The notes beneath the pieces were generated by a model, which was not told where the DNA came from, searched no databases, and saw only the letters and a program-made list of their open reading frames with translations. This document shows positions 1-64,000 of a DNA stretch of 64,000 nucleotides, in pieces. The translations under genes were made by a program, and so were the position numbers. The stretch is from Amoebophrya sp. A120 (taxonomy: Eukaryota > Protista > Dinoflagellata): NCBI GenBank assembly GCA_905178155.1, contig CAJINV010000002.1, positions 2,919,152-2,983,151 on the forward strand. Reading direction: 5' to 3'. Each line of letters begins with the position of its first letter. The stretch's first letter is position 1.

Positions 1-217
1 GTCATGCTAGTCTGGCATGACTCTGAGCTCTGTATTGCGTGGCCACAAACACACTTTATCGCCTGTCATGCAAAGACGCAGTTTCTCATGCGGAATACGC
101 AGCACACAGGCACGAAAAAAACTTGTCATGCTTGGCGGCGCATTGCAGTCGTGCACGTGTTATTGACTGACTTGCATCACAAGTTTCCAGACCCAGACTA
201 CATATTTGCAATGCATA
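1..217. mobile_element. Introner family A, 5'-truncated by window
   Basis: ends TTCCAGACCCAGAC..TGCATA. Confidence 0.8.
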
Positions 218-563
218 TCTTTGTCGCGCTGCGTTGCTTGAAGGAGGACGCTCTGAAAAAATTTTTTTCGGACGTGGAGGAAGACGACGACGAGGAAAAA
301 CCACCTGAGAGCAGTGGTAGAACTGCTGCTGGTCGTGCTTCTAGAAGTGCTGCAAGTTCTTCCGGGAGAAGCCGGAGTACTAGTAGACATTCAAAAGCAA
401 CGGACAAGAACAGTACCAAGGAAGAAACCGAAACAAGTCAAAGTGGAACACAAAATACAAACGATTCTACTTCAACTTCATCTAAAACCACGTTTTCGGA
501 TATGGACGAGATACTGGAACAGCAGGACTTTGCGGCTTCCGAGGATGTAATGGAAAGAGATGC
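218..563 (+). CDS. Exon of giant gene (acidic/Ser-rich)
   Basis: Middle of ORF 4..624, bounded by introners. Confidence 0.8.
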
Positions 564-3500
564 TATCAAATGTAAAAATGTCCTCTGGGTCTGGAAGATC
601 ATGCAGATTTTACATGACATATGACGTCTGTAATGCATAACCTGGCATCACAGATTTTTAGCGGGCTTTCTGATGCCTATCCGGCATGAGAAATACCCTC
701 TCCATGTAGCACAGACTGGACCCCTCTTGCTGGTCATGCAATACAGATTATTTTAGAACGCCCCCCCCAGTGCAGGATAGATGATGATGATGAACGCAGA
801 GACAGCATCACAAGTTGCAATCTTCCAGACCCAGACACTTTTGCAGTTGATAGATGCCGCGTACCGGAATCGGAGAGCTGCTATGGCGTTCTCAAACGTT
901 ACATCCTCAACTGTTACATGAATCTGTGATGCAAGAACAGCAAATGTGAAAGCGGAAAGCTACTTGCGCGCTTTGCATTACAAATTTGCTGGAACGGATT
1001 ATCATGCTGCTTAGCCCTTCGAGAATTTGTCATGCTGAGCACCTTGGCGATCGTGTGGAGGCTGATGGCAATTCTGCATAACAAATCCGTGTAACAGTTC
1101 TTGAGAATGCCATAGCTGCCGCCCACAAGTTGTGGTCCATGCTGCTGTATCCTGTGCAAAAGCATCGTACTCGTATTGCAATTATGCATTACAAATTTTG
1201 TTCTGAAGCTAAATCCGCATTACAAATTTTATTTCTCATGCTGAGGAAATTTGTATTGCATTTATACGAGTGCGATACTTTTGCAAGGCATATGCTGCTG
1301 CTGAAGCGATTGTGGCTCCACGTGCATTATCCACTGCAAATTATATGTCGGGGTCTGGAAGAATACAAACTTGTCATGCAGAATTTCCATGCCCCATGAG
1401 GTCTGGATCTGGAATGCAGGACCTAGGATAACAGGTTCTGCGATTTGTTCTCTATCATCCCTAGCCTGCATGAGAAATAACTCCCACTCATCATGTTGGT
1501 CAAAAAAGAGCAACTTTATTTGGTGATCACGCAAGACAGATTTTTGTGTGATCCACAGGACGCATCACAAGTTTGCTCCTCCCAGAGATCCAGGGATATT
1601 TGCAATGCATATGCACGTGAAGAGCATGGCGGCCTTGCGCAATATCCTGTGCAAAAGTATCGTACTCGTATAAATGCAAGTCTTGCATTACAAATTTTCT
1701 TCTCAAGGTAAATCCGCATTACAAATTTTAATTCTCATGCTGAGGGAATTTGTCAAGCTTTTATACGAATACGATACTTTTGCAGTTCATACGCAAGGAC
1801 GAAGAGCGAAACTTCTGGGAAATCTTCACGCTATGAATTGCAAATATTCCTGGATGTCTGGAAACTTGTGAAGATGCTGTGTGGCGTAATATCACGAGGA
1901 GGCCACAAGTGCTGGCTCAGCATGACAAGTTTCTGAGCTTCTAGGTGTTGTCTATCCTGCATGACAAACTGCGTTTCTGCATGCCAGCACGAAAGTTTGG
2001 CTCTTGGGTAACGTGCACAATGACAGATTTGAGAGTCATGCCAGACAAGCATGACAAACTTGCATTCTTCCAGACCCAGACATATTTGCACTTGATACAC
2101 GCGAAAAAACCACGAAACCGCTTTCCAGTGCGGGCAGCGGCTGAGTATGAAGAGAAAGAAGTTCGTCACAGTCACTAACTTGCAGGCTTTGCATTACAAA
2201 TTTTCTTAGCATCACAAATGTTCCTTGTATTGCAGAAACACTAGGGAAATCCCCAATGAAGTTTGGCTGTGATGCATTTTTACGCATGACAAGCAATTTT
2301 GTATTGCAAAGATGCGCATGCGTGATCGTGACGAACTTTTTTGTTTGATACTGAGCCGTTGCGTGCTCCTGCAGAACGCGTTCGGGCTGCTCAGCTTCGA
2401 CCACCACCTGGATCGTGAGAACTTCGAATATGACCTGCTCAAACGTTACAATCTCAGAAGTTACAATAGAGTCTGGATTTTGACGTATTGCATGATGAGC
2501 ATGACAGACTCGGACAGTATTCCACCACTTTCTGCAATACAGATTTCGCCAAATAAAAACTGTAGTGCGATTCGGATCTGCTCCGGAACTTGTCATGCGC
2601 AATTATCTTGTGGAAGCAGGGTGGTTCATGCACTTCTTGTTGATTCTCGCATCACAGACTTCCATATTCTATTGTAACGTTTGAGATTGTAGTAACAACT
2701 GAGCAGGTTATATCGAAAACGACGACTTTTTCCAGCCGCCAACCAATCTGCTGGGTCCCTCGCTGTCCAAGAGCCGGCGCAGCACCGACGCCCGAATGGT
2801 GGTTTGGTATTGGTTTCACATGCAGGAGAAGGCGCTTATGGGTGGTGGCGCAGCAGCAGCACCTTCATCTTCACCTTCATCATCATCATCTGCCCCAAAA
2901 ACTTTTCAGAAGAGGTCGGACCTGATGCGGCCCACGCAGCTGCTCCCCTTGCACGACATTTTTGAGCAGGATTTGGTGTGCAAATACTGTCGCTCCGCCG
3001 CGTTTAAGGAGGGGTCTTTCGAAAGTTACGATCGCCGATCGGATGTGTATATGCATTGCAAAAGCATTGTAGATAGTACAAATCGCAATACAAATTTTTT
3101 CAGAAGGAAAAATGGAGTTTGTAATGCTGATTTGGCTAAGAAACAAGATTTGTCATGCATGAAAGCAATTAGGACGGGCACGATACTTTTGCAGAGCATA
3201 GTGTACGGCTGGGACTCGGAGTCGCGCATCACCCGGCAACGCGTGATGCGGTATCAAATGCAAATATCCCTGGATGTCTGGAAATAACTTGTGATGCAAG
3301 GAGGGGAATGGTGAAAGCACTGTAATGCGCTGCCCCGCATGACAAGTTTTGCCGTGGTTCTGAGTTGCGTAGTACTCCGCATGGGAACCTGCGTTTTTGC
3401 ATGACAGGCAAGCGGAGCAGCCCTTCGCGGCCACGCAATACAGAGTTCAGAGTCATGCCAGACTAGCATGACAAATCCCGCAATCTCCCAGACCCAGGCA

Positions 3501-6500
3501 TTTTTGCATTTGATATGCGGGTAAGTGAGACGATTCTGGAGGTCCCCCGGATCCTGCAGTACGTCCAGCACAGCTGCCCGCCAGACCAGGTTTTGCTCAC
3601 GCGGGAGGTTCGGATGCCGGCCGATTACGATGCCTGCCACAATGCCATCATCTGGAATATTATGGAGAGAAAAAAGTTTGTCACAGTCATCAGCTTGCAG
3701 GTTTTGCATTACAAATTTTTTTAGCATCACAAATTTTCCTTGTATTGCAGAAACACTACGGAAATCCCTAATGAAGTTTGGCTGTGATGCAGTTTGACGC
3801 ATGACAGAAAATTTTGTATTGCGAAAATGCGCACGAGTGATCGTGACGAACTTTTTTTGTTTGATAAATATGTGGGACACCCACTTTCAGTGCGGGTCCC
3901 AAATCCCCGTGACCAAAGTGCACCAAAGAACCCTCGGGCGGTACTGCGTATGCGAGAAAAAAACTGTGTAAGTGTAAGTCTGTAATGCAAAAAATGCAAC
4001 ACAGCTACGCTTGTCATGCTCCGCATGCATGATAGGCTCGTTTCCTACGTGTTTACCCGTCCTATCTGCGCATGACAAGTTTTTCCTGTCGTGGCAGACA
4101 AACAACTTGTGATGCTGTTTGCCCAAAAGACCTAAACCAACACAGTTTTTTTCTTGGATACTGCGGGCTCCGCTGCTACCGGTACAAGCCCAATCGGTGT
4201 TATCGAAAGGAAAAATCCCCCCTCCCCATATCAAAACGGAATTTCTGATGCTGGATTTGTGTACACAAATCAGGTTTGTATTGCAGAGAGGCACTGCGGC
4301 CAAATCCCCAGGCTAGGTAGGGGCGAATGGGTCTAGTTGTTCAGCATGGCAAGCGGGTCACTTTTAGGGCCAACAGCATGGCAAATCGCTCCCATAGTGG
4401 GGCGGAAGCTTCTGCCCTTGTCTTCTTGCAATACAAATGTGATTTGTGACCTCAAATCAGCAACACAAATTTTCGGAAACATACCTTTTCGATATGGGGA
4501 GGGGGGATTTTTCTTTGCAATCGGTGTCCGTTGTTGTTCGGAAGGGACAACGTTTTTTATGACAGTGCACAACTCCCCCTCGTCGTTCTCATTTCTCATG
4601 CAGAATACCAAATCCACGCTTTCCCTCCTGTCACTATTATGCATGACAAGTTCTGGTAGCCCAAATAGCATTATACTCCAGTGCAAATTTGTCATGCAAA
4701 ACCGGCACTCTTGCTGATGCTTGTATTGCCGTTCATTCTATATAAATGAGGCGGAGGGGGAGTTGTGCACTGTTATATTTTCCCACAAAACCTGCAGGGC
4801 GGGGAGGAAGAAGACGAAGAGGAACAAGCAGCGAAAACGAGGAGGTCGTCGTCCCTGGGACTTGGACGCAACTACTGGTCCGAGCCCGCGAGCTATCACA
4901 CGTCGAAAAAAGTGTAGTTAATACAGTTACACGTTTGTTGTCAATTCAGCAGCACAAATTTCGTTGCATGAAGGAGAAAATTTGCAATGCAGAAATCCTA
5001 CGGGAATAAAACACGTAGTACGAAACAAGGCTCGTCCTATGCATATCCGGCATGACAGAGCTTGTCTGTCTTGCTTGGCCTGCAACACAATGTGTAAGAA
5101 CTGTAAACTACGCTTTTTATTTCTTGCGATACGGGCCTGGAAGTCCAGTGCGAAGACTGTTCGCTCAGCGCGCATGTAGTGCTGGAAGAAGAGGATGTGC
5201 GGGGTTCTATCCTATGTAAAAACGTCCCCAGCACCCCATAGTCAAGTTGGCAAATCTGCAACACAAATCTCCAAGTTTTGGGAGTTGTGCATGACAAAGC
5301 TCCATCTGCAGTGCAGTGCTGGTTAGCAAGGGCAGCCGCATGAGAAACCCAGCTTGTCACATCCTGTTTACAGCATTACAAAGTCCAAAACACTATTGGA
5401 AATAGTGTCTCTCATGCTCATGGAGATGCGCATTACAAATGTTCCTGTCATTGCGCATTTGCATGACAACCCTGGGGTGGGGACGTTTTTCTTTTTGCTG
5501 AGGATAGGTGCCTCGGGCAGGAGCCGGGTCCTCGCCCCCCTGACCAGGTGGTCCCGGAAGAAAAAAGGGGGCGCTCTGTACCGACGCCTCGGGCTGATGA
5601 CCCGGCTCAACGAGACAGAGGGAAGGAGAACGTTCCGGGACCCGGGCAAAGATGAACACTTATGAAGTGCAAAAGCATCGTACAAGCCCCGCATTACAAA
5701 TTTTCTCAGCATGAAAAATCGAATTCGTCATGCTGTTTCACCTTGCAAAGGAAATTTGTCATGCATGTTTAGAATTAGTACGACGAGTGCGGTACTTTTG
5801 CACAGGATGACACTACGAGCTGGGCAAGAACGTCCCGAAGTTCAGAGACCTGATTATGGGATTCTCAAACGTTACATTCTCAACTGTTGCAGCGTGATTT
5901 GTCATGCAGAAACACTATCACGCTTCACACTCTCAAGCTTCTTCGCATGACAAGTTTTCGACGCGCAGCTAAGCAGCATGATAATCCGTGGCAAATCTGT
6001 GATGCAAGACGCGCAAGGTTCCCCGTTTCCATGTTGCTGTTCTTGCATCACAATAATTCATGTAACATTTCAGAATGTAACGTTTGAGAGCGGCATACTG
6101 ATGCGGCTGCAGCCGTTTGAGACGAACGACGCGTTTGTAAGCAAATTGTTCGAAAGCGAGGGCAAGTCGGCGGTGGTCAGTCCCTGGACCCGCACGGGGT
6201 TTCGCAGTGACCTGGGAGTGCAACCGGTCACGCGCACCCCTTATCAAGTGTAAAAATGTCTGGGTCTGGAAGAATACGAACTTGTCGTGCAGATTTTACA
6301 TGGCCCGTGACGCCTGTGATGTATTCCCTGGCATCACAGATTTTCTGAGTGCTTCTTGATGCCTATTCCGCATGACAAATGGCCTCCCCGCGTAGCAGAA
6401 ACTGGGCGTCTCTAGCTGGTCATGCAATACAGATTTTTCTAGAATCCAAAATTAGCATCACAGGTTGCATCCTTCCAGACCCAGACACTTTTACATTTGA

Positions 6501-57500: not shown

Positions 57501-60500
57501 CCCAGCATGAGAAAGAAAATTTGTAATGCAGATTTGCGTTGGAAACAAGATTTGTGATGCAAGACTTGCATTTGTACGAGTACGATACTTTTGCACAGGA
57601 TACAGCTGCGGACGCCCTGTCGAACGGAGACCGCGTATCAAAAGGAAAAACCCCCCCCTCCCCATTTCGAAGTGGAAATCTGTGATGCGGGATTTGTGTA
57701 CACAAATCGGCTTTGTCTTGCAGCAGAGGAATGCAGCTGCAGGCAGGTACAAAGGGGGGGAAGGTGCGTTTTGGTGTAGGCGCCTAGCAAGGCATGCATG
57801 TCCTCCGTAGGCCATACAGCATGGCAAATTACCTGCAGAACGCGGCCAGGCTTTTGGATTTGCCTTCTTGCAATACAGAGATGATTTGTGGTCTTAGATC
57901 AGCATCGCAAATTTTCAGAAGTATCCCGCTCTGGTATGGGGAGGGGGGATTTTTCCTCACCACACCGCGCGCGGGAAGAGGAACAGGCCCGCGAGAGAGC
58001 CTATGAATCGCAAAAGTCTCGCACTCGTATAAATGCATTACAAATTTCCTCAGCATGAAAAAGAAAATGCGGATTTGCCTAAAAGAAAAAGACTTGTGAT
58101 GCAAAAGAAAATTTGTAATGCGGATTTACCTACAAGAGAAAGATTTGTGATGCAAGACTTGCACTTATACGAATACGATACTTTTGCACAGGATAAAGCC
58201 ATGGCGCAAGCAACTTCGATGATCGTGGACGCCGCTACGTTGATATGACAGTGCACCGCTCCCCCTTGTTCTCATTTCTCATGCAAAATACCAAGTCCAC
58301 CCTTTACTGCCCTGTGGCACTGTTTGCATGACAAGTTCTGGTAGCCCAAATTGCACTAAACCTCAGTCGTGCAGCAAATTTGTCATGCAAAACCGGCATT
58401 CTTGCTGATGCTTGTATTGCCGTTCATGCTATAAATGAGGAGGAGGCCGCGGGGGAGTTGTGCACTGTCATAGTTGACGGCTTTGGTGAAGAGCTGGAAA
58501 AACTTCCCGACGGCGCTAGCGTATCGCGAGAAAAAACGGTTTCACTGTAAACTTGTGATGCAGAAAATGGATCGCAGAAGTATGTGTCATGCTACACATG
58601 CAAGACCAAGACAATGGATTTCTAGCTGTATTTTCCCGTAGGAGCCCCGCATGGCAAATTTCCGCTGTCTGTCATGTAAAACAAACTTGTGATGCAAAAC
58701 TTGCAAAATCATTAGTTACAGTAAGCCACTTTTTTCGTACGATATAGCGCACGACATGCTGGTGCACCAACAGCACTCCAGCCTGCAGAGTGATCTGCCG
58801 TTTTCGCGAGGGGGGGAGCTTCAAGCGCCGGGGGAAGAAGGAGGCGCTCCTGCTGGTACGACAAGTATGGTCAACTATTACGGTAAGGTAATAGAGGAAG
58901 ATGACGTCGGCGACGAGGAGAAGGTGAAGGACGAGCAAGATTTAGAAGTCCTAGAAGGAAAGAAGACCACCTCCACACGACGAAGAGCCCGCGGGACCAC
59001 GTCCCGCGATTCGGATGATGAAGATGAAGTAGATGAACAAGTAGAGGAAAGCATAAACAAGGACAAGCTATGCTGTGCAAAAGTATCGCTGTACTCGTAG
59101 TAATTGCACATATGCATGACAAATCTTCCTCCTAAGGTAAAACAGCATTACAAATTCCACTTTCCTACTTCTTGTCAAAATTTGTAATTCAATTTATGTA
59201 CTAAGTACGTTACTTTTGCAATGCATACAAGCATTACCACGACAAGCGTTTAAGGCGTGAAGCTAGGCACAAGCTTTACGATTTAGATAAAGACGGTATG
59301 ACCTGCTCAAACGTTACAACCTCAAACGTTGCGATAGAGTTTCGGTTTTGTATTGCATGATGAGCATGACAGACTCGGACAACATTCCACTTTCTGCAAT
59401 ACAAATTTCGCCAGATTGTAGTTAGTGCGGATTGGGACTCCAGAACTTGTCGCGCGCAATTCTACGAAAGTTCAAGTTGGCTAGGTAATGCACTTCTTGC
59501 AACACAAAGCTCAGATTCTCGTTCTACTGTAACGTTTGAGATTGTAACACCTGAGCGGGTTATAGACCGAGCAGAGATTTTTTTCCATTGGTACCGTCAT
59601 AGGGACTATCAAATGCAAATATGTCTGGGTGTGGAAACTTGTGATGCAAATCTCTGAATGGTGGGCGCACTATAATATGCAGCCAAGCATGACATTGACA
59701 AGTTTTTGCACTGCCATGTGTTTCGTTTTCCGCATGGCAAACTGCGTTTTTACATGATACGCGAGAGGCCCCATTCCTGCTTACGCATCACAGATCTAAG
59801 AATCATGCCAGACAAGCATGACAAATCCTACATTAATATTCCAGACCCAGACATTTTTGCAATGCATAGGGACCTGAAGACCGAAGCCGGGGAGTCGCTC
59901 AGCTCCGGAGCGTATCAAGTGTAAAAGTGTCTGGGTTTGGAAGGATGCAAGGTTTGTCATGCACATTTTGCATGACTCCTGATGTCTGCGATGCATGCCC
60001 TAGCATCACAGATCTTGTGAGGGCTTTCTGATGCCTATACCGCATGAGAAATGCCCTCTCGCCGGGGCCAAAACCAGACCTCTTTTGCTGTTCATGCAAT
60101 ACAGATTTTTGGATAATGCAGACGCAGCATCACAAGTTGCATTCTTCCAGACCCAGACACTTTTGCAATGCATAGAGCGAGCCTCCAGAAGGCACATGAC
60201 ACACTGGACGCCGCCGCGCGGTCTTTTGACTGGAGCAAGTGGCTTCGGAACTATGGGGCTCTCAAACGTTTACATTCTCAACTGTTACAACATGATTTGT
60301 CATGCAAAATGACCATGAGCCGCAAGACGATCAAGCTGCTTCGCGTGACAAATTGTCGAAGGCCCAAACAGAATCTAAATCCGTGCTAAATTTGTGATGC
60401 AAGACTTGCAAGCTTTCCCCTTTCCCTATTGCTGTTTTTGCATGGCAAATTCATGTCACAGTTCAGAATGTAACAGTTGAGAGCACCATAAGAACCGCGC

Positions 60501-63500
60501 ACTGATCGTGCACCGTACCCTTCATATCAAAAGAAAAAAGTTCGTCACGATCACTCATGGGCATTTTTGCAATACAAAACTGTCTGCCATGCGTAAAAAT
60601 GCATCACAGCCGCACTTCCTAAGGGATTTCCCTAGTGTTTCTGCAATACAAGGAGAAGTTGCGATGCTAAAAAAGTTTGTAATGCAAAATCTGCAACTAA
60701 GTGACTGTGACAAGCTTTTTTCTCTCCATACTTCACGTCCTGGTGACCCGACGCCTGGCCCGGGAGCTCCGGAAGCGCGCGGCGCGGCGGCGGCAGATCG
60801 TGCTGAACCCGCTAGACGCACAGATGTACACGCGCGACAACTGGGAAAGCATCAACGAAAAGCTACAGCCCGGCAAGCATCTCGGCGAGGTGTGGGGGAA
60901 GGTAAAGCACGCGGCCACACTATTCCGAGTAAAAACGTCCCCACCTCCCCAGAGTTGTAATGCAAATATGCATGCCAAAAAAGTTTCCCATGCAGAGCAC
61001 CATGAGAGGCATTTTCTAGTCGTGTTTGGGAGTTTGTGATGCTAGAATCAGCATGATATGCTAGATCTGTGATGCTGCGGACCTAGCTAAACAGGATCAC
61101 ACTATGAGGGCACAGAACTTGTCATGCGAATAAACAACCAAAGCTAGTTGATTTTTCTAGCAGATTTCATCCCAGCTTGATTCTGGGGTCGTGGGGACGA
61201 CGTTTTTGCTAACGATACACGCACAACCCGGTGGCCTCTTTCTGGAGCCGATTCATGGTATCAAATGCAAATATGTCTGGGTCTGGAAGAATACGAAATC
61301 TGTCATGCAGTTTCTGCCTGACCCAGATCGTCTGGCATGCAAGCTCTAGCATCACAGATTTTGAGCACTCATCCCAATGCCTAATCTGCATCACAAACTC
61401 CCTCTCCCGGAAACGAGAAGTGGGGCCTTTTGCTAGCCACGCATCACAGATTTTGTCATGATGTAGACCTCGCATCACAAACTCGAATCCTTCCAGACCC
61501 AGACATTTTTGCATTTGATACATGGGGGTGCGGGACGAGAAAAAGGAGTTCACCGCACAGGACCGACAGGAAAAAGCGTTCAACCGCGACGCGCTCGTAC
61601 GAACCGCAAAAGTATCGTACGCGTATATTAAATGCATTTGTATCAGTTCAACTGGTCCCGCGGTTCAACAATGTACCTACCAGTTCAATAGCGCCCCGGG
61701 GCCTAAATATTCTAGAACAAACAGGGCATTTGATATGCTCAGCGCCAAAAAAATATGCGGGTGGGGGAAGAAGTAGGGGGGGCGTTCCTGACCCAAAGGT
61801 ACGCTCCTGATCTCTCTGGTACTTACTCGACCCGGGGGGTCAGGTATTACCTGACCCCCGGTTCGGGTCTGTACCTGCAATGCCGCAGCGCCGTCGTTTT
61901 AGATGGTGCTGCGGCACAGCATCGCGCACCGTGATGGGAACCACAGGCCTCAAGTCTGTCACTACAGAAAAAAGCAGCCACGACTGCGATCGGTCCTAGC
62001 GTTCGCCCGTTTTCTGTTTGAAACCAGTGCCACGCGCACAGCTTCAGTCTTCGCGTGCCCATTCATCGGAAGCACCGTTCCGAAATCGTGTGGCCGCCNN
62101 NNNNNNNNNNNNNNNNNNNNNNNNNNNNNNNNNNNNNNNNNNNNNNNNNNNNNNNNNNNNNNNNNNNNNNNNNNNNNNNNNNNNNNNNNNNNNNNNNNNN
62201 NNNNNNNNNNNNNNNNNNNNNNNNNNNNNNNNNNNNNNNNNNNNNNNNNNNNNNNNNNNNNNNNNNNNNNNNNNNNNNNNNNNNNNNNNNNNNNNNNNNN
62301 NNNNNNNNNNNNNNNNNNNNNNNNNNNNNNNNNNNNNNNNNNNNNNNNNNNNNNNNNNNNNNNNNNNNNNNNNNNNNNNNNNNNNNNNNNNNNNNNNNNN
62401 NNNNNNNNNNNNNNNNNNNNNNNNNNNNNNNNNNNNNNNNNNNNNNNNNNNNNNNNNNNNNNNNNNNNNNNNNNNNNNNNNNNNNNNNNNNNNNNNNNNN
62501 NNNNNNNNNNNNNNNTTCCCACTTCCAGTTGCCTCCTGTCATCCTGGAGCTGCAAGGCTTTCCCACGCTAGACAGCACTACAGTCCGCATCTTTTGCCTT
62601 CTAGCATCACAAAGCTGATTTGTGGCCACAAATCTGCATCACAGATTTCCGTTTTGATATGGAGAGGGGGCATTTTTCATTGTAATAAGGAGGACGCGCG
62701 GCTGCGGGCCCGGTTTCTGTGGAACCGCAAGGCGGTGCGGCACATAAAGCAATCCATTCTGCGGATGGAGTGGCAGTTGCGGGAGCAATCGCGGCCGGAC
62801 CGGGAGCGGCCGCCGGTGATGTGGCGGTGTCTATCAACTGCAAAAGTGTCTGGGTCTGGAAGATTCTAAACTTGTAATGCTGTCTCTGGATTCTGAAAAA
62901 ATTTGTATAATTGCATGACCAGCAAGAGGGGTACAATTTGTGCTACACGGACAGGGCGTTTCTCATGCGGAAGTTGCATCAGGAAGCCATCTAAAAGTTT
63001 GCGATGCTAGGTCATGCATTACAGGCATCATGGGTCATGAGCAGTATGCATGACAAATCTTGAATTCTTCCAGACCCAGACATTTTTGCATTTGATAGTG
63101 TCACGGCTGCGACGTCCGGGTGGACCCGGTGCTCAAGGAGGAACTGGAAACGTTGAAACAAAGCGTGGAAGAGAAAGGCGTATATCAAATGCAAAAATGT
63201 ATTGGTCTGGAAACTTGTAATGCTCCTTTGGGAATAGTGAATGCTCTGTAATGCACAGCCAAGCACCATGAGAAATATCTGCGCTCCTTCTTTGTGTTGC
63301 GTTTTTCGCATGTGAATCGGTTCGAGAGTGTGCCCCAGTTCGCGAACTAGTTCGCCAACGTTCCGGGCATACGAAAAAGAGCAGAACCATACATAGTTCT
63401 GCTCTTTTTCGTATGCCCGGAACGTTGGCGAACTAGTTCGCGAACTGGGGTACACTCTCGAACCGATTCACATTACAAATTTCCTCAGCATGAGAAATAA

Positions 63501-63951
63501 AATTTGTAATGCGGATTTACCTTGAGAGAAAAAAAGCATGATTGCAATTACTACGACTGCGATATTACTTTTGCACAGCATAGCTCGCGCGCATGAAGTT
63601 GTACCGCCGGGAAACCGCGGCGGCGCGCGATATCGAGTTCTCAAATCGGTTACCTTCTCAACTGTTACATGGACGATTTGTGATGCAAGAATGGCAACAG
63701 TCCAAGGGGCATGCTTGCTGCTTTCGCATCACAGATTTGGCACAGATTTAGATGCTGCTTAGCCTCTCGGAGATTTGTCATGCGAAGCAGCTTGAGATCA
63801 CGTGGCGGCTTAAGGTAGTCTTGCATGACAAATTCATGCAACAGTTGAGAGCTGTGTAACGTTTGAGAACTCCATAAGCGAGGAGGAAAAGTTGTTTCTG
63901 AGGGAGATGACGACCGGCATAAAACGGAGCCTGCAGCGAAAGCGCGAGGAG
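218..63951 (+). CDS. Giant multi-exon gene (5'- and 3'-partial, ~135 exons); very large protein of unknown function with WSC-like domain, Cys-rich motifs and long acidic/Ser-Thr linkers
   Basis: Manual splicing (element + one DR copy removed) keeps one open frame, e.g. EDVMERD|AAYRNRRA|AAHKLWSMLL|LKRLWLHVH|VKSMAALR|KDEERNFWEIFT|RKNHETAFQCGQRL|SRCVLLQNAF; the frame matches the ORF-track frame of the long exons (2796, 14750, 17497, 24807, 28486, 43545). Confidence 0.85.
564..852. mobile_element. Introner A
   Basis: TIR; DR gatgc. Confidence 0.9.
882..1114. mobile_element. Introner C
   Basis: TIR; DR gctgc. Confidence 0.9.
1148..1292. mobile_element. Introner B
   Basis: TIR; DR tgctg. Confidence 0.9.
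1328..1611. mobile_element. Introner A
   Basis: TIR; DR tgcat/tgcac. Confidence 0.85.
1643..1791. mobile_element. Introner B
   Basis: TIR; DR cgcaa. Confidence 0.9.
1832..2097. mobile_element. Introner A
   Basis: TIR; DR cacgc. Confidence 0.9.
2146..2350. mobile_element. Introner G
   Basis: TIR; DR ctgag. Confidence 0.9.
2429..2712. mobile_element. Introner I
   Basis: TIR; DR tcgaa. Confidence 0.9.
2713..3049 (+). CDS. Exon of giant gene
   Basis: In frame with ORF 2796+ (MVVWYWFHMQEK...CKYCRS). Confidence 0.8.
3050..3200. mobile_element. Introner B
   Basis: TIR; DR gtgta. Confidence 0.9.
3252..3515. mobile_element. Introner A
   Basis: TIR; DR tgcgg. Confidence 0.9.
3661..3866. mobile_element. 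Introner G
   Basis: TIR; DR aatat. Confidence 0.9.
3949..4160. mobile_element. Introner H
   Basis: TIR; DR ctgcg. Confidence 0.85.
4201..4522. mobile_element. Introner E
   Basis: TIR; DR ggtgt; ends ATC. Confidence 0.85.
4558..4777. mobile_element. Introner F
   Basis: TIR; DR ttttt/ttttc. Confidence 0.85.
4894..5131. mobile_element. Introner H
   Basis: TIR; DR cgagc/cgggc. Confidence 0.85.
5208..5506. mobile_element. Introner D
   Basis: TIR; DR ggttc/ggtgc. Confidence 0.85.
5661..5809. mobile_element. Introner B
   Basis: TIR; DR acact; ends ATG. Confidence 0.85.
5855..6097. mobile_element. Introner C
   Basis: TIR; DR ctgat. Confidence 0.9.
6242..6502. mobile_element. Introner A
   Basis: TIR; DR cccct. 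Confidence 0.9.
6569..6847. mobile_element. Introner D (next to duplicated exon)
   Basis: TIR; DR ggttt/ggatg. Confidence 0.8.
6892..7184. mobile_element. Introner D
   Basis: TIR; DR ggttt. Confidence 0.9.
7352..8273. mobile_element. Atypical 922-bp intron/element
   Basis: TAT..ATA; DR gctgc; ASKL|PDWEDPK in frame; internal 11-bp inverted repeat gtagtgaggtc (7536)/gacctcactac (8238). Confidence 0.75.
8324..8479. mobile_element. Introner B
   Basis: TIR; DR gggca. Confidence 0.9.
8569..8846. mobile_element. Introner A
   Basis: degenerate TIR; DR agtgt. Confidence 0.85.
8895..9154. mobile_element. Introner C
   Basis: TIR; DR tggca/gggca. Confidence 0.85.
9221..9487. mobile_element. Introner A
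   Basis: TIR; DR acaac. Confidence 0.9.
9769..10030. mobile_element. Introner A
   Basis: TIR; DR cgcga. Confidence 0.9.
10079..10354. mobile_element. Introner A
   Basis: TIR; DR acttg/actcg. Confidence 0.85.
10470..10705. mobile_element. Introner F
   Basis: TIR, starts TAC; DR ccacg. Confidence 0.85.
10776..11143. mobile_element. Introner B with internal tandem repeat and polyA insert
   Basis: TIR; DR cacgt. Confidence 0.85.
10806..10903. repeat. ~23-bp tandem repeat (aaattgcattacaaattaagtaa) x~4
   Basis: seen directly. Confidence 0.8.
11235..11458. mobile_element. Introner F
   Basis: TIR; DR aatgg/aaggg. Confidence 0.85.
11557..11796. mobile_element. Introner C
   Basis: TIR; DR gagca. 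Confidence 0.9.
11990..12252. mobile_element. Introner A
   Basis: TIR; DR cactt. Confidence 0.9.
12304..12624. mobile_element. Introner E
   Basis: TIR, starts TAC; DR tgcag. Confidence 0.9.
12795..13049. mobile_element. Introner A
   Basis: TIR; DR tcagt. Confidence 0.9.
13115..13276. mobile_element. Introner B
   Basis: TIR; DR gatga. Confidence 0.9.
13398..13691. mobile_element. Introner D
   Basis: TIR; DR cttcg. Confidence 0.9.
13746..14005. mobile_element. Introner A
   Basis: TIR; DR ccggc. Confidence 0.9.
14103..14384. mobile_element. Introner D
   Basis: TIR; DR cccca/ccccg. Confidence 0.85.
14385..15659 (+). CDS. Long exon of giant gene
   Basis: Open from 14390 into ORF 14750+. Confidence 0.85.
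15660..15910. mobile_element. Introner A
   Basis: TIR; DR ggggc. Confidence 0.9.
16031..16316. mobile_element. Introner D
   Basis: TIR; DR gcgca. Confidence 0.9.
16381..16615. mobile_element. Introner H
   Basis: TIR; DR gctgc. Confidence 0.85.
16638..16782. mobile_element. Introner B
   Basis: TIR, ends ACA; DR actac. Confidence 0.85.
16837..17172. mobile_element. Introner E
   Basis: TIR; DR cgagg/cgacg. Confidence 0.85.
17226..17477. mobile_element. Introner F
   Basis: TIR; DR aaact/aaaca. Confidence 0.85.
17478..18039 (+). CDS. Exon of giant gene
   Basis: ORF 17497+ between introners. Confidence 0.8.
18040..18197. mobile_element. Introner B
   Basis: TIR; DR aggag. Confidence 0.9.
18334..18595. 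mobile_element. Introner A
   Basis: TIR; DR ctgca. Confidence 0.9.
18713..19034. mobile_element. Introner E
   Basis: TIR; DR cttcg/attcg. Confidence 0.85.
19344..19623. mobile_element. Introner D
   Basis: TIR; DR gcacg. Confidence 0.9.
19745..19959. mobile_element. Introner H
   Basis: TIR; DR gcgac/gcgat. Confidence 0.85.
19960..20530 (+). CDS. Exon of giant gene
   Basis: ORF 19905+ between introners. Confidence 0.8.
20595..22349. mobile_element. Nested 1,755-bp TIR DNA element, family K (non-autonomous)
   Basis: ~37-bp perfect TIR tatccaggaaaaaacacccatccccatccattttgcc; DR ctgct; internal cacccatcc repeats; no recognisable transposase. Confidence 0.9.
22421..23319 (+). mobile_element. 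Nested Helitron-like non-autonomous element
   Basis: A^TC 5' start (tctattatat); 3' hairpin ctccggc-ggca-gccggag (23283-23300) then CTAG^T; no TSD; internal (accctctcgcgc)n repeats. Confidence 0.7.
23342..23835 (+). CDS. Exon of giant gene
   Basis: EYK|LLKEQKF junction across the 2.8-kb composite intron is in frame. Confidence 0.8.
23836..24154. mobile_element. Introner E
   Basis: TIR; DR gccaa/gctaa. Confidence 0.85.
24362..24522. mobile_element. Introner B
   Basis: TIR; DR agacc/agact. Confidence 0.85.
24651..24807. mobile_element. Introner B
   Basis: TIR; DR tgaaa. Confidence 0.9.
24808..25752 (+). CDS. Long exon of giant gene
   Basis: ORF 24807+ up to RRALWHRYN. Confidence 0.8.
25753..27832. 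mobile_element. 2.08-kb TIR element with 7-8-bp duplication (hAT-like?) inside coding sequence
   Basis: ~55-bp imperfect TIR (tagggaggcacac..ccggtaccatcg..cgatagc / revcomp tatggacgcacac..ccggtaccatcg..cgatagc); flanks gtacaact/gtacaacc. Confidence 0.75.
27862..28526. mobile_element. 665-bp insertion/intron between duplicated exon segments
   Basis: starts TAT; flanks ccggg/ccgcg; removal keeps frame; no ATA end. Confidence 0.5.
28527..29800 (+). CDS. Long exon of giant gene
   Basis: ORF 28486+ from RALWHRYNPGRK to QDF. Confidence 0.85.
29801..29938. mobile_element. Introner B
   Basis: TIR; DR tttca. Confidence 0.9.
30325..30489. mobile_element. Introner B
   Basis: TIR; DR tgcgc. Confidence 0.9.
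30763..30935. mobile_element. Introner B
   Basis: TIR; DR ccgca/ccgcg. Confidence 0.85.
30936..31553 (+). CDS. Exon of giant gene
   Basis: ORF 30924+ between introners, contains LCPMC. Confidence 0.8.
31554..31789. mobile_element. Introner C
   Basis: TIR; DR ggaaa/ggaac. Confidence 0.85.
31933..32215. mobile_element. Introner D
   Basis: TIR; DR cgcac/cgtgc. Confidence 0.85.
32288..32443. mobile_element. Introner B
   Basis: starts TGC; DR ccagg/tcagg. Confidence 0.8.
32520..32760. mobile_element. Introner C
   Basis: starts TAG; DR acagc/accgc. Confidence 0.85.
32800..33126. mobile_element. Introner E
   Basis: TIR; DR ccggc. Confidence 0.9.
33187..33614. mobile_element. Introner D with ~145-bp internal insert
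   Basis: TIR; DR cggct/cagct. Confidence 0.85.
33652..33900. mobile_element. Introner C
   Basis: TIR; DR ggaac/ggagc. Confidence 0.85.
33954..34222. mobile_element. Introner A
   Basis: TIR; DR gcggg/gcagt. Confidence 0.85.
34223..34495 (+). CDS. Exon with 4-Cys zinc-finger-like motif WCWGC-x12-CLRC
   Basis: HNWCWGCRASQPDTLFSMTCLRCQRVRP, loosely RanBP2-type spacing. Confidence 0.65.
34496..34711. mobile_element. Introner H
   Basis: TIR; DR tatag/tacag. Confidence 0.85.
34929..35152. mobile_element. Introner F
   Basis: TIR, ends ATC; DR cttgg. Confidence 0.85.
35208..35460. mobile_element. Introner C
   Basis: TIR; DR tgcgg. Confidence 0.9.
35775..35927. mobile_element. Introner B
   Basis: TIR; DR cagac. 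Confidence 0.9.
35988..36299. mobile_element. Introner E
   Basis: TIR; DR cattt. Confidence 0.9.
36376..36638. mobile_element. Introner A
   Basis: TIR; DR aacac. Confidence 0.9.
36744..36894. mobile_element. Introner B
   Basis: TIR; DR tgaag. Confidence 0.9.
36944..37239. mobile_element. Introner D
   Basis: TIR, ends ATG; DR ccggg/ccggc. Confidence 0.85.
37305..37458. mobile_element. Introner B
   Basis: TIR; DR agcac. Confidence 0.9.
37502..37737. mobile_element. Introner C
   Basis: TIR; DR gaggt. Confidence 0.9.
37764..38012. mobile_element. Introner F
   Basis: TIR; DR ctgga. Confidence 0.9.
38102..38311. mobile_element. Introner H
   Basis: TIR; DR gagga/gacga. Confidence 0.85.
38592..38855. 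mobile_element. Introner A
   Basis: TIR; DR cgacg/ctacg. Confidence 0.85.
38918..39253. mobile_element. Introner E
   Basis: TIR, ends GTA; DR cctgc. Confidence 0.85.
39498..39738. mobile_element. Introner F
   Basis: TIR; DR ttgtg. Confidence 0.9.
39739..40370 (+). CDS. Exon of giant gene
   Basis: ORF 39624+ between introners. Confidence 0.8.
40371..40632. mobile_element. Introner A
   Basis: TIR; DR gtctc. Confidence 0.9.
40680..40856. mobile_element. Introner B
   Basis: TIR; DR cggag. Confidence 0.9.
40857..41572 (+). CDS. Exon of giant gene
   Basis: ORF 40688+ between introners. Confidence 0.8.
41573..41725. mobile_element. Introner B
   Basis: starts TAC; DR tggcc. Confidence 0.9.
41789..42013. 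mobile_element. Introner F
   Basis: TIR; DR attcg/cttcg. Confidence 0.85.
42131..42307. mobile_element. Introner B
   Basis: TIR; DR acgca. Confidence 0.9.
42362..42878. mobile_element. Introner D with nested polyA retro-type insert
   Basis: TIR, ends ACA; DR gctac. Confidence 0.85.
42612..42832 (+). mobile_element. Non-LTR retro-type fragment (A-rich, polyA tail)
   Basis: 13-bp duplication aaatctgcattac at 42599-42611 and 42833-42845; polyA at 3' end. Confidence 0.65.
42932..43214. mobile_element. Introner A
   Basis: TIR; DR aagac/aggag. Confidence 0.8.
43281..43543. mobile_element. Introner A
   Basis: TIR; DR agtgg. Confidence 0.9.
43544..43979 (+). CDS. Exon of giant gene (coiled-coil-like)
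   Basis: ORF 43545+. Confidence 0.8.
43980..44129. mobile_element. Introner B
   Basis: TIR; DR agaac. Confidence 0.9.
44264..46938 (+). CDS. WSC-like carbohydrate-binding domain spread over 7-8 exons
   Basis: Spliced: YVGCYRD...VFECAILCADRPFFALQGGGQCWCAS...ECSSVCAYAG...FNCGGKLRNAVY, the 8-Cys WSC pattern. Confidence 0.75.
44335..44655. mobile_element. Introner E
   Basis: TIR; DR cgcct. Confidence 0.9.
44716..44977. mobile_element. Introner A
   Basis: TIR; DR gtccg. Confidence 0.9.
45054..45317. mobile_element. Introner I (reverse orientation relative to 2429)
   Basis: TIR; DR agagt. Confidence 0.9.
45386..45667. mobile_element. Introner D
   Basis: TIR; DR cgcgg/cgcac. Confidence 0.85.
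45696..46034. mobile_element. Introner E
   Basis: TIR; DR ggaag. Confidence 0.9.
46285..46588. mobile_element. Introner J
   Basis: TIR tatggaag(t/c)gtcaggat; DR acagc. Confidence 0.9.
46665..46932. mobile_element. Introner A
   Basis: TIR; DR gtcta. Confidence 0.9.
46973..47117. mobile_element. Introner B
   Basis: TIR; DR agccc. Confidence 0.9.
47511..47819. mobile_element. Introner J
   Basis: TIR; DR gcgag. Confidence 0.85.
48154..48365. mobile_element. Introner G
   Basis: TIR; DR ggaga. Confidence 0.9.
48423..50974. mobile_element. Composite 2.55-kb intron: introner A with ~2.25-kb nested insertion (~48504-50761)
   Basis: A 5' and 3' halves; DR gaaga; EHE|EDRNQ in frame. Confidence 0.85.
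49419..50750. repeat. Minisatellite arrays (ttccccgtgcttccc; tgcaaaatatttNggNNN; ttgggcgattcgccg) in two ~0.6-kb tandem units (49571-50213, 50214-50750)
   Basis: seen directly; both units start aagctg.aaaaccgggg and end ccgctcagca. Confidence 0.85.
51176..51401. mobile_element. Introner F
   Basis: TIR; DR ctatt/ccatt. Confidence 0.85.
51458..51765. mobile_element. Introner D
   Basis: TIR; DR cggac. Confidence 0.9.
51868..52117. mobile_element. Introner F
   Basis: TIR; DR ccacg. Confidence 0.9.
52170..52314. mobile_element. Introner B
   Basis: TIR; DR gcgag. Confidence 0.9.
52493..52702. mobile_element. Introner G
   Basis: TIR; DR atgct. Confidence 0.9.
52908..53944. mobile_element. 1,037-bp TIR element, family L, acting as intron
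   Basis: ~38-bp imperfect TIR tatca(a/c)agg..tgaatcac..caaa.gaatca; DR tacta; STST|SGETSS in frame. Confidence 0.85.
54074..54312. mobile_element. Introner C
   Basis: TIR; DR gaggc. Confidence 0.9.
54470..54628. mobile_element. Introner B
   Basis: ends ACA; DR degenerate cctct/gccct. Confidence 0.8.
54689..54950. mobile_element. Introner A
   Basis: TIR; DR gccgt. Confidence 0.9.
55024..55749. mobile_element. Introner A with 433-bp nested insert (55264-55696)
   Basis: DR tctcg; insert flanked by 18-bp duplication catgacaaactcctgctg. Confidence 0.85.
55808..56070. mobile_element. Introner I
   Basis: TIR; DR cctac. Confidence 0.9.
56152..56254. mobile_element. Introner K (103 bp)
   Basis: TIR tatccaggaaaaaac / ggatgggtgttttttcctgctgata; DR ggaga. 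Confidence 0.85.
56302..56458. mobile_element. Introner B
   Basis: TIR; DR agagc. Confidence 0.9.
56590..56824. mobile_element. Introner C
   Basis: TIR; DR gcaga. Confidence 0.9.
56920..57183. mobile_element. Introner D
   Basis: TIR; DR gctga/ggtga. Confidence 0.85.
57231..57407. mobile_element. Introner B
   Basis: TIR; DR ggaga. Confidence 0.85.
57451..57602. mobile_element. Introner B
   Basis: TIR; DR cagct, left copy offset by ttt. Confidence 0.85.
57636..57964. mobile_element. Introner E
   Basis: ends ACA; DR ccgcg. Confidence 0.85.
58002..58195. mobile_element. Introner B (internal duplication)
   Basis: TIR; DR gagcc/aagcc. Confidence 0.85.
58244..58472. mobile_element. Introner F
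   Basis: TIR; DR gttga. Confidence 0.9.
58522..58744. mobile_element. Introner H
   Basis: TIR; DR tagcg. Confidence 0.9.
59069..59227. mobile_element. Introner B
   Basis: TIR; DR caagc. Confidence 0.9.
59297..59564. mobile_element. Introner I
   Basis: TIR; DR gacgg/gaccg. Confidence 0.85.
59607..59868. mobile_element. Introner A
   Basis: TIR; DR gggac. Confidence 0.9.
59913..60174. mobile_element. Introner A
   Basis: TIR; DR gagcg. Confidence 0.9.
60252..60490. mobile_element. Introner C
   Basis: TIR; DR ggaac/agaac. Confidence 0.85.
60525..60730. mobile_element. Introner G (reverse orientation relative to 3661)
   Basis: TIR; DR cttca. Confidence 0.9.
60921..61217. mobile_element. Introner D
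   Basis: TIR; DR cacac/cacgc. Confidence 0.85.
61259..61520. mobile_element. Introner A
   Basis: TIR; DR catgg. Confidence 0.9.
62099..62516. other. Assembly gap (Ns)
   Basis: run of N. Confidence 1.
62688..63182 (+). pseudogene. Exon-like fragment (two exons joined across introner A 62832-63097, DR gtgtc) nested in the composite intron
   Basis: EDARLRARFLWNRK..VMWRC|HGCDVRVDPVLKEELETLK is in frame; preceded by an E 3' end (to 62687) and followed by a truncated A (63183-63309). Confidence 0.5.
63310..63473. repeat. Near-perfect 164-bp hairpin (78-bp arms, 8-nt loop); foldback/MITE-like
   Basis: atgtgaatcggttcgagag...gcagaac / gttctgc...ctctcgaaccgattcacat. Confidence 0.9.
63631..63876. 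mobile_element. Introner C
   Basis: TIR; DR cgcga/agcga. Confidence 0.85.
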
Positions 63952-64000
63952 TATCAAAGTGACAAAAGCCCCCACCCCATATCGGAAACGGAAGATGCGC
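63952..64000. mobile_element. Introner E, truncated by window end
   Basis: tatcaaag..cccccaccccatatc start. Confidence 0.7.

Follow-up and report, generated by a model that had tools for sequence, protein, structure and literature searches.

Introners of Amoebophrya sp. A120 were described by Farhat et al. (2021, PMC7789003) as hairpin-forming elements of many families, with a mean length of about 240 nt, inverted repeats in which TAT is followed by seven less constrained positions and then by three or more A, and flanking direct repeats of 3–5 nt (5 bp in the legend of Fig. S19). In the parts of that report drawn on here, canonical introns coexist with the non-canonical ones, NCI-rich genes are poorly conserved, general mobilisation by a transposase is argued against, and RNA-seq-supported junctions are reported together with a near-complete U2-type spliceosome in which U1 was not found. 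For the same strain, the corresponding parts of Gozashti et al. (2025, PMC12130899) describe TIR DNA families of 150–320 bp, tens of introners per gene and mostly non-canonical splice sites. One A120 family, among 22 of 58 A120 rows, was annotated there by hand with a 5-bp target-site duplication (TSD), and a TIR family with integrase-like ORFs is reported.

Three further systems, each known here from part of the cited sources, are close. Euglenid nonconventional introns share with the elements described below a MITE-like origin, paired ends, sliding direct repeats and triplets at fixed distances (PMC12501133, PMC11282704), although the euglenid triplets are CAG at +4..6 and CTG at −8..−6 and the excised RNA is circular, whereas here the triplets are TAT and ATA and the offsets sum to 5. 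The introns of Fritillaria borealis also derive from MITEs and carry TIRs and TSDs, and non-GT-AG introns are the majority in that organism (PMC11282704, PMC13326754); they prefer AG-AC or AG-AT ends and a TAC target, in contrast to the absence of any junction sequence preference here. Finally, the TA..TA termini resemble those of IS3EU/GingerRoot, which use integrase-like DDE enzymes (PMC10045372), but their TSD is usually 6 bp and here it is 5 bp.

The elements analysed here belong to the introner class published for A120, and the class is therefore already known: the inverted-repeat motif, a direct repeat within 3–5 nt, repeated families, the hairpin and non-GT-AG boundaries were all found. 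They are non-autonomous TIR DNA transposons (MITEs), with TIRs, a constant TSD, empty sites and no coding capacity. Farhat et al., in the parts used, treat repeats and splice sites as variable and give no family-specific inverted-repeat motifs, whereas here a uniform 5-bp repeat lies directly outside TAT/ATA, the families have their own TIR cores, the ends are transcript-polar and an internal motif is shared. Similarly, the automatic TSD calls of Gozashti et al. range from 2 to 5 bp and splice sites are taken to be carried or co-opted, with no fixed-offset rule in the parts used. Added here to the published class are the strict 5-nt offset, the polarity, the cut register and the shared internal motif, none of which was met with in the literature searched, which included text parts of PMC7789003, PMC12130899, PMC11453091, PMC10045372, PMC11282704, PMC12501133, PMC13326754 and 10.1101/2024.09.05.611473. 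No resolved excision mechanism for A120 introners appeared in it either, PMC7789003 included, in line with the first-pass annotation of this DNA, which had noted similar introns with inverted and direct repeats in Amoebophrya and knew of no resolved mechanism.

Elements and reading frame of the host gene

The window, that is the whole stretch of 64,000 nucleotides analysed, is one stretch of a very large (+)-strand gene, open at both window ends and containing a gap of 417 N. Curation yielded 132 complete TAT..ATA inverted-repeat elements with a summed length of 38,951 bases; with the partial elements at the window edges, the two halves at the N gap and the nested copies, the total is about 135, as first counted (Table 1). 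An automatic caller that uses the direct repeat provided 122 of the 132, and the other 10 were placed by hand from the TIRs plus the repeat; a caller that ignores the repeat recovered 127/132 at identical coordinates. The left end reads TAT in 127/132 and the right end ATA in 123/132, and A is present at TIR positions 11–14 in 96–116 of the 132 elements. The flanking repeat matches at 5/5 positions in 91 elements, 4/5 in 33, 3/5 in six and 2/5 in two, at least 4/5 thus being reached in 124/132, and perfect repeats of 2, 3, 4, 6, 7, 8 and 9 bp were found in 12, 2, 1, 0, 0, 1 and 0 of them. Strict TAT..ATA pairs with a 5-bp repeat, 100–400 bp apart, numbered 80, versus a mean of 1.6 and a maximum of 5 in 30 shuffles. 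The first-pass annotation had stated that nearly every interruption has TAT/ATA ends and a 5-bp repeat of arbitrary sequence. Both ends are indeed intact in 118/132 elements, and the base use of the repeats equals the exon background, but the repeat is imperfect in 41/132 and one interruption, 25745–28544, has no paired ends.

The elements fall into 10 families with median lengths of 156–325 bp, plus nine singletons, and both orientations are present. In the set of 447 window and locus elements described below, nearest copies are 85% identical (median). A total of 374 copies of an internal motif, GCAT(G/C/T)ACA, were counted in 129/132 elements, where it is arranged as an inverted pair near both ends; it is absent from 19.9 kb of exon. 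Hairpin folding is strong, with a median z of −7 in 30 sampled elements and a z of −12.6 for the family 1 element 54689–54950. The orientation of family 8 relative to the transcript is skewed 25 to 3 in the window plus the loci described below, unlike that of most families, and may mark an orientation that splices poorly.

Table 1. Coordinates of the host gene, the introner families and other features in the window. Family numbers are labels from the present clustering.
Feature	Positions	Strand	Remarks
Host gene	223..63951	+	131 exons up to 61597, then four exons after the N gap
Element cut by the window start	1..217		Family 1/6 type, right-hand part
Family 0	1148-1292, 1643-1791, 3050-3200, 5661-5809, 7352-8273, 8324-8479, 10776-11143, 13115-13276, 16638-16782, 18040-18197, 24362-24522, 24651-24807, 29801-29938, 30325-30489, 30763-30935, 32288-32443, 35775-35927, 36744-36894, 37305-37458, 40680-40856, 41573-41725, 42131-42307, 43980-44129, 46973-47117, 52170-52314, 54470-54628, 56302-56458, 57231-57407, 57451-57602, 58002-58195, 59069-59227, 63183-63582 (chimera)		~156 bp; 32 copies (15/17 by orientation)
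Family 1	564-852, 1328-1611, 6242-6502, 8569-8846, 9769-10030, 10079-10354, 11990-12252, 18334-18595, 33954-34222, 36376-36638, 38592-38855, 40371-40632, 43281-43543, 44716-44977, 46665-46932, 48423-50974, 54689-54950, 55024-55749, 59913-60174, 61259-61520, 62832-63097		~263 bp; 21 copies (8/13)
Family 2	5208-5506, 6569-6847, 6892-7184, 13398-13691, 14103-14384, 16031-16316, 19344-19623, 31933-32215, 33187-33614, 36944-37239, 42362-42878, 45386-45667, 51458-51765, 56920-57183, 60921-61217		~293 bp; 15 copies (7/8)
Family 3	882-1114, 5855-6097, 8895-9154, 11557-11796, 31554-31789, 32520-32760, 33652-33900, 35208-35460, 37502-37737, 54074-54312, 56590-56824, 60252-60490, 63631-63876		~240 bp; 13 copies (5/8)
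Family 4	4558-4777, 10470-10705, 11235-11458, 17226-17477, 34929-35152, 37764-38012, 39498-39738, 41789-42013, 51176-51401, 51868-52117, 58244-58472		~229 bp; 11 copies (8/3)
Family 5	4201-4522, 12304-12624, 16837-17172, 18713-19034, 32800-33126, 35988-36299, 38918-39253, 44335-44655, 45696-46034, 57636-57964		~325 bp; 10 copies (6/4)
Family 6	1832-2097, 3252-3515, 9221-9487, 12795-13049, 15660-15910, 42932-43214, 59607-59868		~264 bp; 7 copies (5/2)
Family 7	2146-2350, 3661-3866, 48154-48365, 52493-52702, 60525-60730		~206 bp
Family 8	3949-4160, 19745-19959, 34496-34711, 38102-38311, 58522-58744		~215 bp
Family 9	2429-2712, 45054-45317, 55808-56070, 59297-59564		~266 bp
Singleton	20531-23341		Family 0 ends; clusters apart owing to nested inserts
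Singleton	23836-24154		Family 5 ends
Singleton	13746-14005		Ends similar to family 6
Further singletons acting as introns	4894-5131, 16381-16615, 46285-46588, 47511-47819		
Singleton intron	52908-53944		1,037 bp; without the shared internal motif
Singleton intron	56152-56254		103 bp; resembles the long element 20595..22349 at its ends
Long TAT..ATA element	20595..22349		1,755 bp; near-perfect long TIRs, perfect 5-bp repeat; nested in intron 20531-23341
2,800-bp interruption	25745..28544	+	Reads as a canonical GT..AG intron, splicing deduced from the frame
Element halves at the N gap	61598..62687		Left end family 0-type (61598..) and right end family 5-type (..62687), flanking 417 N
Element cut by the window end	63952..64000		Left end

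When the 129 pre-gap elements, each with 5 nt, and the 2,800-bp insert were removed in silico, a sequence of 19,891 nt was obtained, equivalent to 6,630 codons with no stop. Removal of 2 or 8 nt instead gave two stops, and other offsets gave 114–143. The predicted frame is open in 131/131 exons from 223 to 61597 (median length 71 nt, shortest 17 nt), with a log10 chance of about −28, at a load of about one transposon per 150 coding bases. The stop-codon check proposed with the first reading was therefore passed at element plus 5 nt, and its claim that the frame stays open at all junctions it translated was upheld for these exons; the exception, after the gap, is the chimeric element 63183–63582, whose called start breaks the frame and which fits it only when begun at an overlapping TAT at 63181. 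Some exons may be missing within the N-gap region, 61598..62687.

The host protein is an orphan. A protein search with its residues 742–2115 gave no match, and the lone match of the host protein, P0001, was discarded as spurious, as it rests on a 52-aa tandem repeat. Pfam gave nothing above the cut-off for 65/131 exons; below it, a WSC fragment was seen in exon 44983–45051 (E 0.0047; 17.5 bits against a cut-off of 27.8). The regions 44270–45053 and 46200–46660 show a Cys pattern like one or two WSC domains spread over several exons, and a small zinc finger is possible at 34350–34430. Rfam gave no match in the window, and no snRNA was found in it.

Offset and probable cut register in conserved genes

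A pattern search revealed the families of the window also in contigs JACKZZ01 of a second assembly (134 loci, 557 kb), where a DGAT2 exon matches Amoebophrya sp. A25 at 72% and RPB1 matches alveolate proteins. Indirectly, these matches make Amoebophrya the likely genus of the window. With the repeat-blind caller, 331 of 461 locus elements had a perfect 5-bp repeat, and at most seven had perfect repeats at 3, 4 or 6–9 bp. A perfect 6-bp repeat, the usual TSD length of IS3EU/GingerRoot, was found in 0/132 and 1/461 elements. In RPB1 (L042/L043), removal of the element plus 5 nt restored 34–39 of 39 identities to the homolog P0002 at 4/4 junctions within the aligned region, whereas removal of 2 or 8 nt gave 19–22 of 39. 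Homology also delimits six GT..AG introns in this gene, which has one further GT donor, the seven canonical donors reading GTA in 7/7 and GTAT in 4/7; one element sits inside a canonical RPB1 intron.

For a PseB-like gene (L036, 11 called elements), the 5-nt version required 4 gap openings versus 10–11 in alignments with 80 prokaryotic homologs; one of the 11 elements was placed 1 nt off, which affects the alignment tail only. A junction of this gene with a 3/5 repeat was still exact against the homologs. In addition, empty-site paralogs with a single repeat copy were found at three junctions and, therefore, the 5-bp repeat is a target-site duplication. Frame, RPB1, the PseB-like gene and the empty-site paralogs thus agree with the first-pass annotation that one 5-bp copy is removed net.

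The PseB/FlaA1-like sugar dehydratase gene (L036, 2930–7240) is 56% identical to a bacterial protein and has more than 10 introners, and is a candidate for a bacterial transfer that was invaded by introners afterwards. The Cys-rich repeat proteins encoded in tandem at L004–L006 are paralogs with unequal introner content, so that filled and empty sites are adjacent.

The offset bears on two ordinary explanations that we regard as largely refuted and scarcely credible, namely that a normal spliceosome cuts at cryptic GT-AG sites close to the elements, an alternative raised with the first reading, or that the host gene is a dead, transposon-filled relic. Some in-frame GT..AG pair lies within 12 nt of 52/132 elements and six slide within the repeat exactly to GT-AG, but 80/132 have no such pair, 126/132 are not readable as GT-AG in any of six registers, and shifted junctions would place indels in invariant RPB1 motifs. 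GT is present at the −1 register in 37/132 and AG at the +1 register in 44/132. The lack of a homolog of the host protein would suit a relic, which, however, would not keep 131/131 exons in frame.

The position of the cut could be read from junctions whose two repeat copies differ, of which the host gene has 41. The register proposed here rests on non-synonymous repeat mismatches at two junctions, one in the PseB-like gene and one in DGAT2. At one residue of the PseB-like gene the left copy encodes M and the right copy V, and M is found in 75/80 homologs; at another the left copy encodes P and the right copy R, and P is found in 0/80 homologs and R in five. These residues place the cut within the repeat. 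In DGAT2, the Amoebophrya A25 ortholog has S where the left copy encodes S and the right copy P, which places the cut at most 2 nt before TAT. Consequently, the cut would begin 1 nt, possibly 2, before TAT. Pfam on 40 exon pieces flanking such mismatches gave matches in two genes only, and a junction of L068 (Pro versus Ala) was left out of the register count. A stop-codon test of registers gave one case against the 4-nt register (L038) and was uninformative in the window.

Two other guides to the register were set aside. A strong/weak-base asymmetry suggestive of a 3-nt offset, 19 versus 7 in the window, was not replicated in the loci (19 versus 18). The published A120 splice-site tallies, whose nine top classes all start N-T, fit the model; they were not counted as proof because aligners that slide junctions toward GT, AG, AT or AC may have produced them.

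Signals at the element ends and route of removal

The conservation of ends and repeats was followed in an oriented set of 447 elements, comprising the 132 of the window and the 315 locus elements, out of 414, that were retained by a coding-strand filter. Mismatches per site reached 6.3% in the repeat versus 1.5% at the six end bases, and there was no sequence preference at either junction. It follows that selection acts on the TAT/ATA ends, and that the repeat, whose decay is about fourfold faster, is not the signal. This speaks against a removal guided by the identity of the two 5-bp repeats, through pairing or template switching, either in the cell or as an artefact of reverse transcription. 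Repeats are perfect in 333/447 elements, and false introns in cDNA classically arise where a hairpin is combined with a direct repeat, but a 3/5 repeat is still cut exactly with respect to homologs, and an artefact cannot account for the intact frames of RPB1, the PseB-like gene and DGAT2 or for 6,630 open codons; we consider this explanation very improbable. The first-pass annotation had proposed a dedicated machinery that reads the paired ends and exactly reverses the duplication. The first half of that proposal stands, as the termini are the signal; the duplication itself is seemingly not read, and a fixed offset from the ends fits the fast repeat decay and the exact 3/5 junction better.

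At the 5′ end, T1 was changed in 1/447 elements and T3 in 14/447, and at the 3′ end the last A was changed in 12/447 and the third-last A in 4/447. This polarity, noticed post hoc in the window (132 elements; Fisher p = 0.048), was then repeated in the loci (315; p = 0.0075) and reached p = 1.7e-4 with both together, on 31 substitutions in all. It persisted with perfect repeats only (p = 0.0014) and was lost when elements were oriented by family (p = 0.46). End conservation therefore tracks transcript direction and not element orientation; sequence context or a simple strand mutation bias would not be expected to give such an interaction. Recognition is thus likely to take place on the transcript.

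The same result disfavours the DNA excision that the first-pass annotation had left open, in which a domesticated transposase would remove the elements in expressing nuclei in the manner of ciliate IESs and leave one repeat copy. Ciliate IESs have TA-initial ends, TIRs and one retained repeat copy, as do the elements studied here, and precise excision from DNA would yield identical spliced RNA reads. However, conservation by transcript direction is not expected of a symmetric DNA excisase, the elements are present in two assemblies, that of the window and the second one, and Amoebophrya is not known to have a separate somatic nucleus. Raw RNA reads also carry element ends joined to the flanks of other loci, beginning at TAT (139 reads of X7 at 42362 and four of X5 at 43281), and represent either element-bearing RNA or DNA carry-over. 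DNA excision is accordingly judged improbable. In X7, the 139 reads join a family 2 end to the AT-rich flank of another locus, possibly from an element kept in an abundant transcript.

The raw RNA runs X5–X7 do not cover the host gene, as compared on 29900–48400, and no exon–exon joint of this gene was found among 15 of the 35 joints listed (RNA runs X5–X8, 29900–48400). One contig of these runs, presumably RNA, matches an exon (47163–47341) without mismatch at a depth of 3.6; these reads were given no weight for the splicing of the host gene. Removal at the RNA level is likely from the published RNA-seq of the class, frame plus homology, and polarity, and we hold it to be very probable that it occurs at fixed offsets from the element ends, by a spliceosomal or another activity.

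As to the activity itself, we see an even chance that the TAT..ATA elements are removed from pre-mRNA by a relaxed spliceosome that cuts at fixed distances from both ends. The elements, as non-autonomous DNA transposons with TAT..ATA termini and a 5-bp TSD, lie in coding sequence and were probably spread by one type of integrase-like DDE transposase that binds the shared internal GCAT(G/C/T)ACA repeats. The donor would read N-U-A-U, like the canonical GUAU donors of the organism with position +1 free, and the acceptor would have no sequence of its own, being measured about 4 nt past ATA, while the paired TIRs would hold both sites together. The conserved A of the 3′ end would be the candidate branch point, and the net loss would be the element and exactly five bases. 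A 1-nt offset with an N-U-A-U donor would account for the fixation of U and A and for the greater freedom of the third base. A spliceosome is also favoured by the near-complete U2-type machinery published for A120 (PMC7789003), and precedent is provided by Fritillaria, where, in the parts of the sources used, the spliceosome is described as adapted to MITE-derived introns (PMC11282704, PMC13326754). Counted against a spliceosome are the removal in both orientations and the absence of any branch-point consensus upstream of the conserved 3′-end A; in addition, the proposed +1 position shows no excess of G (131/447), which is odd if normal donor chemistry is used.

A more specific form of the relaxed spliceosome is put forward tentatively, below even confidence. 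In it, A120 would have a U1-less spliceosome with a ruler code, where any base plus UA serves as donor and a sequence-free acceptor lies about 4 nt past the 3′ AUA, so that the offsets sum to the 5-bp duplication. Any transposon of the superfamily would then become a scar-free intron on landing, in either orientation and at any site.

The main competitor, a serious one though less likely than the relaxed spliceosome, is a hairpin-guided endonuclease and ligase of non-spliceosomal nature, making a staggered cut on RNA at fixed offsets from the paired ends. It is favoured by the strong hairpins, in which pairing at P>0.5 was seen for the inner TIR in 91% of 123 elements and for the three terminal pairs in 67–74%, by the working of both orientations (219 versus 207 elements relative to the transcript) and by the lack of junction sequence preference. 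Fixed offset and transcript polarity are equally compatible with it. Euglena offers a precedent in the parts of the sources used, with conserved triplets set 3 and 5 nt inward from the junctions, excised circles instead of lariats (PMC12501133, PMC11282704) and non-spliceosomal factors argued for. On the other hand, the tolerated end changes break pairing (T3 to C at the 5′ end, last A to C at the 3′ end), TIR positions 4–8 are paired in only 46–79%, with an identity between the two ends no better than shuffled in the largest TIR class (0.33 versus 0.33), and the invariant UA coincides with positions +2/+3 of the organism's own donors.

If the fixed-offset model is true, the published splice-site variability is junction slide inside the repeat, and the scar-free uptake of so dense a transposon load is explained, by a spliceosome (or a new nuclease/ligase) that can dispense with both GT and AG.

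Unusual interruptions and nested elements

Besides the six elements that slide to GT-AG through the chance sequence of their repeats, the 2,800-bp interruption departs from the first-pass annotation, which had found no canonical GT-AG intron. It begins with GT, ends with AG after a pyrimidine-rich tract, and is bounded by two copies of a 46-bp stretch that contains AG/GT; judged from the frame, it is most simply a canonical intron created by this 46-bp duplication. Inside it lie an unpaired TAT-type left end at 27862 and, at the putative donor site, an inserted TIR element of 2,080 bp (25753–27832) flanked by an 8-bp (7/8) target duplication. This element looks hAT-like, and its ORFs gave no Pfam match.

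No transposase ORF was found in the long element 20595–22349, which is young and shares its ends with 56152–56254; the latter, a short derivative of this type, contains the shared internal motif twice. Among 17 long candidates of the window and the 557 kb of loci, with length and ORF content as the sole criteria, none was an autonomous transposase element, and 12 ORFs of nested inserts gave no Pfam match. Mobilisation by an integrase-like transposase is accordingly put forward as a lead only.

Within the chimera, positions 63300–63470 form a near-perfect 170-bp palindrome in which the 5′ half of a family 1/6 element is joined to a family 0 3′ half, from either a deletion or an assembly collapse. 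A 44-bp exon is present in tandem duplicate (6525–6568 and 6848–6891), and the first 41 bp of element 6569–6847 are common with 6892–7184. This duplication likely arose by unequal crossover between two family 2 copies, a route to exon duplication through introners. Element 6569–6847 had been considered as proof of repeat-independent cutting and was dropped, since 6569–7184 is removable as one unit with a perfect repeat.

In both assemblies (window 7537–8260; L042 166–930) there is a nested element of 700 bp that has short TAGTGAGGTC inverted repeats and, after them, a GC hairpin, and that looks Helentron/DINE-like. More nested inserts or tandem repeats lie inside elements at 48500–50750, 22430–23310, 42610–42840, 55260–55690, 33250–33400 and 10810–11030, and the host elements that contain nested inserts reach 2.8 kb and yet retain both ends and the frame.
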